From assembly GCF_006345805.1 (NCBI RefSeq), contig NW_021826041.1, positions 1 through 13,867 on the forward strand: DNA of 13,867 nucleotides, given 5' to 3'. The stretch comes from Octopus sinensis. Its lineage: Eukaryota. Positions 1 through 13,867 of the stretch are shown piece by piece; position 1 is the stretch's first letter; every line of letters starts with the position of its first letter. The position numbers were made by a program, and so were the translations under genes. Under the pieces are notes generated by a model. The model was given only the letters and a program-made list of their open reading frames with translations. It searched no databases and was not told where the DNA came from.

Positions 1-695
1 ACAATGTGCAGACGACTCACTGGCTGGATCCTGAGGACATTCCGGACAAGAGACTGCGAGACCATGTTGACACTATGGAGGACATTTGTCCTAAGCCCGC
101 CACTACTGCTCCCAACTGTGGTCACCACATAGTGTCAAACTAACCACAGAGCTTGAGACAATCCAAAGACATTTCACCAAGATTATTCCACCATGAAAGA
201 AAAGAACTATTGGGAGAGGCTTAGGGAACTCAATTTGTACTCCTTGGAACGAAGACGAGAGAGATATGCAGTGATATACATATGGAAAATCCTGGAGGGA
301 CTAGCACCAAATTTTGGAATTGAGAGCTGTTCCAGTCCCCGTACAGGACGTCACTGTGTGGTGCAAAGTCCCGTCTTCCACATCCAGGGTAAGGAGCAGA
401 TACTGTAATAGCCTGGGGTTCAGGGGCCCTCAGCTGTTCAACAACTGCCAAGAAAACTAAGAGATCTACATGATGCGGATGTGGACATTTTCAAAAAACA
501 TCTAGACAAGCTGCTTTCCGGGATCCAGATGAACCCACTGCAAGGTACGAAGGTAACCTAAGGGCAGCAGCTACAAACTCTCTCTTAGATCAGTGGCCAG
601 CCACGGCAAACTGGACTTAGAGAGGGTAGCAACAAGAGCGGTGCCCCAGCATGGCCTCAGCCGGATGGCTGAAACAAGTAAAAGAGTAAAGAGTA
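1..695 (+). mobile_element. 3' end of a CR1-group non-LTR retrotransposon (ORF2 C-terminus, short 3' UTR, GTAAA(A)GA tail); runs off the left window edge
   Basis: Joining frames gives ..GWILRTFRTRDCETMLTLWRTFVLS/YCSQLWSPHSVKLTTELETIQRHFTK/MKEKNYWERLRELNLYSLERRRERYAVIYIWKILEGLAPNFG../SLGFRGPQLFN/LPRKLRDL..VDIFKKHLDKLLSGI/PDEPT..RAAATNSLLDQW..TAG(618-620). This is the typical post-RT region of CR1-like ORF2. About 5 frameshifts. A short-repeat tail follows, then (TA)n. Confidence 0.88.
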
Positions 696-1023: not shown

Positions 1024-1469
1024 GGGTGGGAAGGGGCTGTTGACACAATCGTTTCATTCACAAATTGAATTCGGTGATACCAGTTGCGGATTCTAGCTCG
1101 CTCTGATACTGAGTTGAGTTGGTGCCTTCTGGTATCTCAAAATTCAATATATAATCATTTATGATTATAGTATTCTACGCTGAAGAGAAAAGAAGTTTCG
1201 GTAAGATAGAATTATTTAATATTTAATATTTAATTCTTATGCTTTCCTTAAAACTTGATTTCGAAACGTACGTCCGTGGATAACTAAAAAAAAAATGTAT
1301 GATAGATTGCAGTCAATTCATTCTCTCTTACCTGTTTGTGTCTGCCTTCCAAATGCTGTTTTTACTGAGATCTCCCTTTTTAGTAGAAGAAATAGCTATA
1401 ACCCTTTGACTGCTATTTCTAAATTCGGTATGTGGTAAGGCAACTCGTTGCTAAACCCTTATTGCTTAG
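1024..1469 (+). mobile_element. Hammerhead-containing, hairpin-rich non-coding cassette in (TA)n (Penelope-like LTR or retrozyme-like unit)
   Basis: Bounded by TA tracts on both sides, no ORF, contains the hammerhead at 1174-1280 and four further hairpins. The class assignment is inferred from the known association of type I hammerheads with Penelope-like elements and retrozymes. Confidence 0.6.
1174..1280 (+). ncRNA. Type I hammerhead ribozyme with elongated stem II
   Basis: Stem I TCTACG(1174-1179)/CGTGGA(1275-1280); core CTGAAGA(1180-1186); stem II 1187-1262 closed by G1187-C1262; GAAA(1263-1266); palindromic stem III ACGTACGT(1266-1273); GUC triplet with predicted cleavage after C1274. 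Confidence 0.8.
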
Positions 1470-1477
1470 TATATATA

Positions 1478-1525
<48 letters not shown>

Positions 1526-1529
<4 letters not shown>

Positions 1530-1726
1530 GACCTCGTGTGTACCGTTGGCGATTTTCTTCCTCTGTCTTCCCTTCTCTGATCTTTCTTTCCTTCTCCTAT
1601 GTTTCCGACGAAGAGCTCCGCTCGAAACGTTAAGCCCTCCTTCTTTCCTGAGCGTCCAATAATACTATATTTGTTCCACGTCCTCGCATTGTTGTGTTTT
1701 TTTTGTGCTTTCTTGTTTGGATTAAC
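1526..1726 (+). mobile_element. ~200-bp TA-flanked repeat with a variant minimal hammerhead (Penelope-like LTR-type family), copy 1
   Basis: Flanked by (TA)n. Collinear with the reverse complement of 13653-13867 through blocks TGTRACC, GTTGGCGATTT, TGTTTCCGANGAAGAG, GCTCGAAACGT, CTGAGCGTC, CCACGTCC and ATTRACTATA. Confidence 0.7.
1601..1635 (+). ncRNA. Minimal type I hammerhead-like motif, non-canonical core
   Basis: GTTT-CCGACGA-A-GAGC(TCC)GCTC-GAAA-CG-TT-AAGC. Stem I GTTT/AAGC, 4-bp stem II, ACGT mini stem III. Has a U4C change and an extra A relative to the consensus. Confidence 0.5.
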
Positions 1727-1745
1727 TATATATATATATATAAGT

Positions 1746-3792: not shown

Positions 3793-4000
3793 TTTTGGCT
3801 TAAGGCAAATTTGGCAGGAGGAGGAGGGGATAATCTACTATGTAGACCCCTGTACTTCACTCGTACTTTATTTTATCGACCCGAAAGGCTGAAAGGTAAA
3901 TGTTAACCTCGGCGGCATTTGAACTCAGAACATAGAGAGCTGATAGACATATTACTAAGCATTTTGTCTGGAATGCTAACGATTCTACCAGTTCGCCGCC
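3793..4000 (-). mobile_element. SINE family B, diverged near-full-length copy
   Basis: Reverse complement begins GGCGGCGAACTGGTAGAATCGTTAGCA, has a B-box GAGTTCAAATGCC and a central GAGGTTAAC..CCTTTCAGCCTTTCGGGTCGATAAAATAA. Matches 11714-11880. Confidence 0.85.
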
Positions 4001-4020
4001 TTATATTTGTCAATAACTAT

Positions 4021-4587
4021 TTTCCCACTATAGACACAATATCTGGAATTCGTGAGAGTTGGTCAGTCGATTACATCGACCCCAATCTTCAACTGGTACT
4101 TATTTTATCGACCTCGAAACGATTAAAATCAAAGTTGACTTCGACGGGATTTGAACTCAGCCTGTGAAGAGCCGGGATAAATATTATAGACACGAAGCCT
4201 GAAATTCGAGGGGGGTAGTCAGTTGATTACATCGACCCCAGTCTTCAAACGGTACTTATTTTGTCAACCACGAAACGATTAAAATCAAAGTTGACCTCGA
4301 CGAGATTTGAACTCAGCTTGTAAAGAACCGAGACATAAGTCGCAAGGCATTTTGTTCGACGATCCAACAATTCTTCCAAATTTCTAAGAGAGGGTTAGGA
4401 CTAGTTTTTTAAGGAGTTAGTCTGTTAATTCGACTCCAGTACTTGCCACGAACTTTATTTGTCGATCCTGGAAGGACAAAGGGCAAAGTTGATCCCGGCA
4501 GGATTTGAACTCAGGATGTAAAGAGATAAAACGTATATCTCGAAGCGTTTTACCCGATGTCATGAAGATTCTACCAAATTTCTAAGA
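4021..4587 (-). mobile_element. Three further head-to-tail SINE family B units (~4021-4180, ~4183-4377, ~4378-4575)
   Basis: Each unit has TCGACCCC/TCGACTCC, AAAGTTGA and GATTTGAACTCAG blocks in the same order. Confidence 0.85.
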
Positions 4588-8980: not shown

Positions 8981-9943
8981 CAGTAATACCTCACTTTACA
9001 AGACCCCGGGTTTACGAGTTTTATTTTATCATATTTCATGCGCAAAACCCAAATTTTGAATGAAGTGCAAACATTTCTACTCTTATAGCAAATGCTCCTG
9101 CAGGATACCGAGAAATTTACAGAGAGCGAAAAGGTTTCTTCTAAGCAAACAACGCTAGACTTGATTTTTAAAATGAGATCTGCAAGTCCGTCTACGAGTG
9201 CTTTTGCATCAGCGATCGCGTCTATAAGTGACGGTGTGCACGAGTCTAGTTCGAGTGAAAGTGATTCAGAAAACGATAACAATAATAATAATTTTAAATT
9301 ATAAATGATCTTGACATTCTTTTTGCTTTGCATAAAATATTCTTTACATTCTACTGTTGTTTTATTGCCATTTATTTACGAGTATTATCAATTTTATAGG
9401 TAAAATATTTTTCTGGGAACGAATTACAATTTATAACATTGCTACTATGGAAAAGTATCGCTCTGCTTTACGAGTATTCACTTTACGAGTGATCTCCGGG
9501 AACATATTAACTCGTATATCGAGTCATTACTCTTTTACTCTTTTACTTGTTTCAGTCATTTGATTGTGGCCATGCTGGAGCACCGCTTTTAGTCGAGCAA
9601 ATCGACCCCAGGACTTATTCTTTGTAAGCCTAGTACTTATTCTATCGGTCTCATTTGCCGAACCGCTAAGTTACGGGGACGTAAACACACCAGCATCGGT
9701 TGTCGAGCGATGTTGGGGGGCGGACAAACACAGATACACAAACATATACACACACGTACATATATATATACATATATACGACGGGCTTCTTTCAGTTTTC
9801 GTCTACCAAATCCACTCACAAAGCTTTGGTCGGCTCAAGGCTATAGTAGAAGACACCAGCCGAAAGTTCCACGCAGTGGGACTGAACCTGGAACCATGTG
9901 GTTGGTAAGCAAGCTGCTTACCACACAGCCTCTCCTACGCCTG
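8981..9943 (+). mobile_element. Internally deleted Tigger/pogo DNA transposon (body 8981-9530; last 2 nt displaced to 9942-9943 by a SINE)
   Basis: Left TIR CAGTAATACCTCACTTTACAAG (8981-9002). Right TIR CTCGTATATCGAGTCATTAC[SINE]TG followed by TA. C-terminal remnant NPNFE*SANISTLIANAPAGYREIYRERK/SKQTTLDLIFK plus an acidic tail, typical of Tigger transposases. Subterminal TTTACGAGT repeats. Confidence 0.82.
9527..9941 (-). mobile_element. SINE family A, full length (tRNA-derived head, internal microsatellite, LINE-type tail)
   Basis: Minus strand starts GGCGTAGGAGAGGCTGTGTGGTAAG, with an A-box-like motif at 9931-9921, a B-box GGTTCAGTCCC at 9888-9878 and a (GTAAAAGA)n tail. Confidence 0.92.
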
Positions 9944-11713: not shown

Positions 11714-12182
11714 GGCGGCGTGCTGGTAGAAACGTTAGCACGCCTGGAGAAATGCTTAGCAGTATTTCGTCTGCCGTTACGTTCTGAGTTCGAATTCCGC
11801 CGAGGTCGACTTTGCTTTTCATCCTTTCGGGATCGATAAATTAAGTTCCAATTACTCACTGGGGTCGATGTAATCGACTTAATCCCTTTGTCTGTCCTTG
11901 TTTGTTCCCTCTATGTTCAGCCCCTTGTGGCAATAAAGAAATAAGAAACGTTAGCACGCCGAGCGAAATACTTATCGCTACTTCGTCAGTTTTTACGTTC
12001 TGAGTTCAAATTCGACTTTGCTGTTCATCCTTTCAGAGACAATAAATCAAGGACCAGTTGCATACTGGGGTCGATCTAATCGACTGATCTCCCCCCCCCC
12101 CAATTTTTTTCTCCCCAAATAGAAAAGCTCTACATTGTAATTTGTCCCGTCTGAGTTCAGCCCTGTGTGACTAATAAAGAAA
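11714..12182 (+). mobile_element. Dimeric SINE family B (monomer 1 11714-11948; monomer 2 11944-12182)
   Basis: Head GGCGGCGTGCTGGTAGAAACGTTAGCACGCC, B-box GAGTTCGAATTCC (11786-11798). The central GAGGTCGACTTTGCTTTTCATCCTTTCGGGATCGATAAA resembles the Meta/MESC-type conserved SINE domain (from memory). Tail AATAAAGAAA. The second unit restarts at AGAAACGTTAGCACGCC. Confidence 0.88.
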
Positions 12183-13652: not shown

Positions 13653-13867
13653 AGTCAATTATAAAAATTATAAACACAGAGAAAAAGAAAATAACAAATA
13701 AACGTTTGGACGTGGCACAAGTAATGTATTAGTAGTAAGACGCTCAGAGAAAGAAAAGAGTAGAAGTTTTACGTTTCGAGCATATCTCTTCTTCGGAAAC
13801 AGAAAGAAAGAGGAACGTCCGAGACGAAGGAGGAAAATAAATCGCCAACAATCACGTGCGGTTACAT
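13653..13867 (-). mobile_element. Hammerhead-bearing repeat family, copy 2 (reaches the window edge)
   Basis: Homologous to 1526-1726. Hammerhead-like motif at 13800-13766: GTTT-CCGAAGA-A-GAG(ATATG)CTC-GAAA-CG-TA-AAAC. Confidence 0.7.

Follow-up and report, generated by a model that had tools for sequence, protein, structure and literature searches.

The forward strand of a 13,867-nt stretch of Octopus sinensis DNA (referred to here, at its full length, as the window) contains at positions 1168-1286 the complete sequence of a hammerhead ribozyme whose stem II is unusually long. This locus raises the question of whether the motif is a solitary ribozyme, the first sign of an unannotated ribozyme family, as had been suggested from the sequence, or a part of something larger, and of how such a sequence would come to lie where it does. 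The motif consists of the following parts:

1168 to 1179, plus strand: 5′ strand of stem I (distal 4 bp, 2-nt internal loop, proximal 6 bp)
1180 to 1186, plus strand: 5′ catalytic core CUGAAGA (C3-A9), from the sequence
1187 to 1262, plus strand: stem II, 76 nt (4 bp, 2x2 internal loop, 6 bp, weaker distal hairpin)
1214 to 1234, plus strand: (ATTTAAT)3 at the tip of stem II, the third unit overlapping the 3′ strand of the GAAUUA/UAAUUC helix
1263 to 1274, plus strand: 3′ core GAAA, stem III and GUC, with the predicted cut after C1274
1275 to 1286, plus strand: 3′ strand of stem I and internal loop, from sequence and folding

Every sequence feature of a type I hammerhead is present, namely CUGANGA, GAAA, UH, A15.1-U16.1, and the 10.1-11.1 pair, and the topology is likewise that of type I, with three helices and helix I open. 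Proximal stem I pairs UCUACG (1174-1179) with CGUGGA (1275-1280) over 6 bp, including one U-G, and folding places a distal stem I (1168-1171 with 1283-1286) beyond a 2x2 internal loop. Stem II is closed by the G1187-C1262 pair, GAAA occupies 1263-1266, and the GUC triplet occupies 1272-1274. Stem I has its internal loop, and stem II has an internal loop after its first 4 bp with no terminal loop 2, the tip being an expandable AT-rich cap. The first-pass annotation had located the core, the G-C closing pair, GAAA, GUC, the 6-bp stem I, and the 76-nt stem II correctly, and the palindromic stem III that it had described, ACGUACGU, does lie at 1266-1273. Its hairpin model of stem II needs one amendment: the helices, including the distal GAAUUA (1209-1214) with UAAUUC (1231-1236), and the (ATTTAAT)3 cap are present, but the GGUAAG/CUUUCC helix contains one U-U mismatch. 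The parts it named are thus right, although the distal stem I, the 600-bp unit to which the motif belongs, and the pattern of insertion were missed.

A relaxed descriptor allowing a stem II of 10-100 nt has a single match in the window, at this motif, and matches 2 of 500 dinucleotide shuffles. Taken by itself, the motif has an unremarkable folding energy (z of -1.3 to -1.7). A search of the window copy against Rfam returned no hammerhead match, the other matches being microsatellite-driven noise. The Rfam model RF00163 (Hammerhead_1) aligns the core and all three stems of a subfamily-B relative with a 61-nt stem II, for which a 57-nt insert is needed and 21.1 bits are scored against a cut-off of 34. 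It had been expected that so long a stem II would evade length-limited searches, and the motif does lie outside two published descriptors, one of which takes a stem II of 3-7 bp with a loop of 3-10 nt, or ~24 nt at most (PMC4209133), and the other a spacer of 7-17 nt (PMC8557442). However, the length of stem II is not the sole cause of the Rfam misses, since a copy from a sister family with a short stem II was also missed.

In the folded monomer, stem III amounts to just an A-U and a C-G pair around a GUAC loop and has a pair probability of 0.04; the probabilities for stem I and basal stem II are 0.89-1.0. When two copies are co-folded, the double hammerhead is the minimum-energy structure (-57.2 against 2 x -21.3 kcal/mol), so that the dimer is preferred by 14.6 kcal/mol, and stem III forms an 8-bp intermolecular duplex within it. 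The preference for a dimer that had been anticipated for this motif is therefore borne out in folding. On the basis of modelling and analogy, the hammerhead likely cleaves as a dimer and not as a monomer. Circular monomers folded at z of -4.2 to -7.8 in five of five cases (30 shuffles each), and the two circular folds that were inspected had stems I and II formed and stem III open.

The motif belongs to a 600-bp non-coding repeat present in thousands of copies in the genome, and this abundance rules out a solitary domesticated ribozyme. The repeat has a period of exactly 600 bp and a GC content of 35%. It holds no ORF, the longest stop-free frame being 58 codons, and the absence of longer open frames rules out a coding role. 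A 16-base word from the core and stem I has 2,917 matches genome-wide, compared with 1 for the reversed control, and words for the young 5′ half and for the older subfamilies have 1,641 and 776 genome matches, respectively. The 421 bases around the motif gave 1,232 candidate genome matches, and nearly all of the 40 that were scored are 98-100% identical. Units stand head to tail with one type I hammerhead each, in arrays that reach 14-15 units, and copies are dispersed over many contigs without LTR architecture. So far as sequence can test it, the repeat is a non-LTR retrozyme, which agrees with the earlier assignment to the Penelope/retrozyme kind of type I hammerhead. By the same measure, the suggestion of an unannotated family gives way: the long-stem-II hammerhead is a variant within a known class, the non-LTR retrozymes, and not a new ribozyme family.

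Positions in the unit are numbered from m1, the first base past the predicted cut, on a reference monomer taken from locus L007. In these terms, the window holds the following:

1006 to 1023, no strand: remnant of the (TA)n target at the 5′ junction, from the sequence
1024 to about 1472, plus strand: truncated single retrozyme copy of about 447 bp, m350-600 and then m1-195, 98-100% identical to the L007 monomer
1367 to 1472, plus strand: structured region up to priming site 1 (~m195), the part best conserved between retrozyme families
1470 to 1525, no strand: (TA)n target at the 3′ junction, from the sequence and from the TA that follows most arm ends

The window copy lacks m196-349 and is flanked on both sides by TA tracts. 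As it has one ribozyme, it is unable to release a circle. Both ends of the insertion lie in (TA)n, which masks any target-site duplication.

Several other repeats share the window. Positions 1528-1730 (plus strand) contain an abundant repeat (3,372 candidates) that ends in (TA)n and has a minimal hammerhead-like core, CCGACGA...GAAAC, near 1605-1640; it resembles the pseudo-LTR (pLTR) of a different Penelope-like element (PLE) family, and no ORF linked to it was found. A more decayed minimal hammerhead-like PLE end, CCGAAGA...GAAAC, which folds poorly, occupies 13755-13867 (minus strand). A LINE-like RT region with an ERRR-type motif is represented at 1-690 (plus strand) by its decayed 3′ end, for which Pfam gave no match. 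SINE-like repeats form an inverted pair at 1854-2172 and 9531-9852 (84-96% complementary), with more SINE-like copies at 3899-4540 and 11777-12096.

Beyond this assembly, the unit is present in runs carrying five organism labels (A-E), and contigs from organism C are 85-95% alike, one of them being without 7 nt at the stem II tip. The unit, whole or in part, was found in 19 of 21 listed sequencing runs, none of which is of record as RNA. Contigs from four runs all show the end-to-start joint of the unit, which is compatible with tandem DNA and circles alike. Judged by its sequence, the retrozyme family probably spans related species.

Stem II varies in length with the age of the subfamily: the older ones have 60-61 nt, and lengths of 69, 76 or 83 nt are seen among the young. 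The 76-nt length and the (ATTTAAT)3 cap are confined to the youngest subfamilies, and ATTTAAT-like units, which vary in number among young copies and are absent in older ones, account for the growth of the young stem II. The cap thus reads as a recent slippage expansion. A functional role for (ATTTAAT)3 is ruled out by the older subfamilies, which are without it.

To what extent the rest of the structure is conserved was assessed in an alignment of 27 of 100 distinct motifs, hand-picked to span the subfamilies with a long stem II, to the exclusion of near-duplicates, copies bearing indels, and sister families. Because the copies were retrieved through the 3′ core, the invariance of the 3′ core and helix III is uninformative. 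C3, G5, G8, and A9 are invariant in the 27 copies and in three sister-family copies. Departures from the core comprise U4C (3/27), A6G (1/27), and an A-C mismatch at 10.1-11.1 (4/27), and the subfamilies that carry them still spread. In the named structure, 93.5% of 797 cells are paired, compared with 23-53% in slid controls. Double-sided changes occur at five pairs, two of the six in proximal stem I and three of the ten in basal stem II, with none in the distal part. The covariation score exceeds 500 of 500 shuffles, though the copies are related, which inflates it, and 65 of 500 shuffles had at least as many double-changed pairs. From this alignment, RNAalifold recovered stem I, stem III, and a distal helix and did not recover basal stem II.

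Two sister retrozyme families of 542-558 bp (3,758 matches) have a stem II of 25-26 nt (L095, L101, and others), together with a GUU triplet and, frequently, a CCGA core. BLAST aligns them to the 600-bp unit only over ~170-200 nt (about m128-291) at 67% identity, and despite this divergence they retain the core and the GUAC loop, with stems that are re-paired. Since the short-stem-II sisters keep the core and re-paired stems, the long arm is an extension on a shared base. On comparison of the sequences, the conserved base of stem II is 4 bp, a small internal loop, and 5-6 bp, and the long extension appears to be tolerated. The internal loop, which takes the normal place of loop 2, may contact the stem I loop. 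A fold common to the families covers ~m90-298 with 37 pairs, four of them with double changes. When a canonical ancestor with a short stem was searched for, 37 matches came back, and almost all of them are variants of the sister families.

The manner of insertion was examined in 87 merged stretches, in which 140 arm 3′ ends are visible and 47 complete inverted insertions are found. Sampling was non-random (the best matches, those that came first on one contig, and 40 regions picked by hand mostly as multi-unit or inverted) and exaggerates the proportion of inverted and long arrays, while end positions played no part in selection. Arm ends fall at two fixed internal sites in 132 of 140 cases, 81 at site 1 (m175-205) and 51 at site 2 (m280-310), with 8 elsewhere, and TA comes next in 128 of the 140. 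Both sites lie within the fold shared between families, and the sister families have the same two end sites with some exceptions. From the sequence, the region ~90-300 nt past the cut is a candidate RNA element read by the RT. One arm ends at each site in 42 of the 47 inverted insertions, which is the "tail" geometry of Penelope. Both arms are longer than one unit (600 nt) in 16 of the 47 and longer than two units (1,200 nt) in 4. The arms continue through the cut site; priming at the ribozyme cut end is ruled out, as 1 of 140 arm ends lies there. The 5′ junctions are scattered, with 5 of 47 near the opposite priming site where 4.7 are expected, and this leaves L1-style twin priming on one linear RNA unsupported.

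PLEs are known for inverted 5′-truncated arms, a 30-40-bp tail at one end, and a bias to microsatellites (PMC8557442), and the protein of a lizard PLE makes nicks in both strands of AT-rich DNA, with initiation at two internal sites by which the tail is defined (PMC11167929). The retrozyme unit itself is without an RT + GIY-YIG ORF and is not an autonomous PLE. In this genome, a GIY-YIG-like fragment (Pfam E 0.014, below cut-off) led to a young PLE family with 717-aa open frames, represented by the following copy:

L191, 2178 to 5025, minus strand: apparently intact young PLE with a 2,578-bp unit and a 717-aa frame

Within its pLTR, this copy has a hammerhead whose stem II, ~30 nt long, is interrupted, and its tail is ~75 nt. 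In 14 regions, all nine inverted PLE copies with both ends visible pair a short end with a long one, both in TA. Nothing significant emerged when the sequence of the 717-aa protein was searched against Pfam and PDB, and the protein searches for a partner found a single PLE group. The cysteine-rich linker of the protein suggests an affiliation with Neptune or Nematis. BLAST of the retrozyme unit against the fetched loci of this family detected no similarity, pLTR included. By eye, ~25 nt upstream of the PLE hammerhead (L191 pLTR ~120-150 against m270-298) resemble priming site 2, a likeness unreported by BLAST. At L235:669-3125 lies an inverted insertion of a PLE derivative that has no ORF and bears a long, AT-rich variant of the pLTR, one of its arms being fused directly to a retrozyme array; this chimera is a hint, because one template switch or two successive insertions both fit. 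Since the two-site tail geometry and the TA targets match those of PLEs, the PLE class of enzyme is well supported, though the exact family is not.

The template can be approached through the differences between units, which in 29 young loci amount to 0.16% for units of the same arm, 0.25% for those of opposite arms, and 1.6% for those of different loci. Private variants are common to both arms of one insertion. In the 62 loci that have at least two units, 28 array-wide variants are each confined to a single locus. On the ribozyme strand, these private array-wide variants include 13 A>G versus 6 T>C (one-sided P=0.025), an excess that is modest, with 3 of the 13 from one locus and genome-wide privacy checked for one haplotype only. 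Single-unit changes number 4 A>G versus 15 T>C. We presume ADAR editing to be the cause of the private A>G changes. A word with a double A>G has 33 matches, 17 in one insertion (15 and 2 in its arms) and 16 on a duplicate contig with the same flanks and junction as the 17-unit locus. This unplaced contig, G000:C10246 (L257-L259), is a second version of the C6 array locus in which the junction occurs twice, and is likely an assembly artefact. The double A>G haplotype is most simply accounted for by one edited circle copied by both primers.

PLEs have been named as strong candidate movers of animal retrozymes (Cervera and de la Pena 2020, PMC7229834), and the mechanism of retrozyme mobilisation has been described as still to be elucidated (Li, Clavereau and Pollet 2026, bioRxiv 10.64898/2026.07.22.740005). 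For the octopus repeat, it is probable that a dimer-cleaving non-LTR retrozyme is circularised and copied in rolling-circle fashion into (TA)n by a Penelope-like RT-endonuclease. First, tandem arrays would be transcribed. Neighbouring hammerheads would then pair through ACGUACGU, cut after GUC, and release 600-nt monomers, as predicted from folding and from the newt/axolotl precedent. By analogy with coral, mussel, and axolotl retrozymes, a host ligase would close the monomer, and the lone hammerhead in the circle is predicted to be without stem III and hence quiet. A PLE protein, the putative enzyme, would nick both strands of the TA tract, and cDNA would start at two internal sites, ~195 and 290-305 nt past the cut as the observed end positions indicate, one per strand. 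Each cDNA would travel round the presumed circle a varying number of times, and the pair would be joined head to head in the architecture that is observed.

A bolder form of this proposal is offered tentatively, the balance of our judgement leaning slightly against it. The insertions could be fossils of single A-to-I-edited RNA circles, from which a Penelope-type enzyme copied as many as 15 turns off one primer and copied again off a second primer on the opposite target strand. The hammerhead could at the same time have a new ribozyme architecture, with stem I docked on the stem II internal loop and the tip free for 35-60 extra nt, such that whole retrozyme families are missed by current descriptors.

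The main rival keeps the same element and PLE machinery and takes as template an uncleaved linear multimer from a homogeneous array, lost or unassembled, with a slow or dispensable hammerhead and no circle intermediate. It draws on the lizard PLE, which in vitro used mainly unprocessed RNA and for which cleavage was dispensable (PMC11167929), and on the Xenopus retrozymes, of which one dimer in nine cleaved in vitro and eight were inactive (bioRxiv 10.64898/2026.07.22.740005). Core variants also persist in some octopus subfamilies, and the arrays of 14-15 units are possible sources. This account is nevertheless unlikely: the double A>G haplotype has no other source locus in the assembly, a linear multimer edited stochastically would not bear the same marks in all units, the junctions misfit twin priming on one linear RNA, and the core and stems are preserved across divergent families. 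The private variants common to opposite arms, the fixed 3′ sites paired with scattered 5′ ends, and the insertions in which both arms exceed one or even two units argue against growth at the DNA level, by which single units would be retrotransposed and their arrays later grown and homogenised by unequal crossing-over. Such a route has been proposed elsewhere (bioRxiv 10.64898/2026.07.22.740005) and would yield homogeneity within arrays, but it demands two independent expansions per locus and appears quite improbable here. It is harder still to credit that some further autonomous PLE has the unit for its pseudo-LTR, with arrays as its ORF-less deletion products and the long stem II inherited, for although 24 of the 57 retrozyme families of Xenopus have termini that match known elements, nearly all of them PLEs (bioRxiv 10.64898/2026.07.22.740005), and the autonomous PLE described above also has an interrupted stem II, 0 ORFs are attached in the 87 merged stretches, the ends meet TA or an inverted arm, and BLAST found no similarity to the fetched loci of the one PLE family compared.

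For a retrozyme probably copied from a circle by a Penelope-like enzyme, the signatures of mobilisation weigh more than the length of stem II itself. The signature of the enzyme is the two-site tail geometry common to the retrozyme and the young autonomous PLE of the same genome, and that of the template is the single haplotype extending over both arms, up to 17 units. The series of stem II lengths (25, 60, 69, 76, and 83 nt) nonetheless constitutes a natural test of the cargo tolerance of the hammerhead, which is useful for circRNA engineering, and this family shows that descriptor-based censuses of ribozymes undercount.

The openly accessible literature searched on octopus or cephalopod hammerheads, octopus Penelope/Neptune elements, and long stem II yielded no description of the family or of a natural stem II of this length. 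The portions consulted of three further sources contain no case comparable to a stem II of 60-83 nt (PMC3088659; PMC6765202; PMC7761336). A helix II called "long" in a 2026 paper is 6-8 bp (PMC13725137), and the hammerheads of Clec2 are split by several hundred nucleotides (PMC6765202).

As in the metazoan non-LTR retrozymes (PMC7229834; bioRxiv 10.64898/2026.07.22.740005), the octopus units are ORF-less, low in GC, and tandem, with one type I hammerhead each, and they share with them dispersed dimers to multimers, a strongly self-paired predicted circle, and coexisting PLEs. The 600-nt unit is larger than the circles of ~170-400 nt (PMC7229834) and falls inside the 51-972 bp range reported more recently (bioRxiv 10.64898/2026.07.22.740005). 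In contrast to the typical helix of 4-5 bp in metazoan non-LTR retrozymes, stem II here is 60-83 nt, and no description of strict (TA)n targeting with a two-site inverted architecture was found for retrozymes in the parts consulted of the published accounts (PMC7229834; bioRxiv 10.64898/2026.07.22.740005). The nearest parallel for the ribozyme is HHR_Amex1 of newt and axolotl, which has one pair and a palindromic tetraloop in helix III and, in axolotl, cleaves efficiently only as a dimer (PMC7229834). The octopus hammerhead has the same one-pair helix III with a palindromic tetraloop and the same preference for a dimer, here by folding prediction. However, HHR_Amex1 retains canonical contacts between loop 1 and loop 2, whereas in the octopus motif an internal loop and a long extension replace the terminal loop 2. 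The insertions resemble those of EN+ PLEs in being tandem or inverted with unequal ends, in their microsatellite or AT-rich targets, and in internal initiation downstream of the hammerhead (PMC8557442; PMC11167929). They differ from EN+ PLEs in that the retrozyme has no RT-EN ORF and has a full canonical stem I in place of their minimal hammerhead, and the tail is ~100 nt here, compared with the 30-40 nt published for PLEs.
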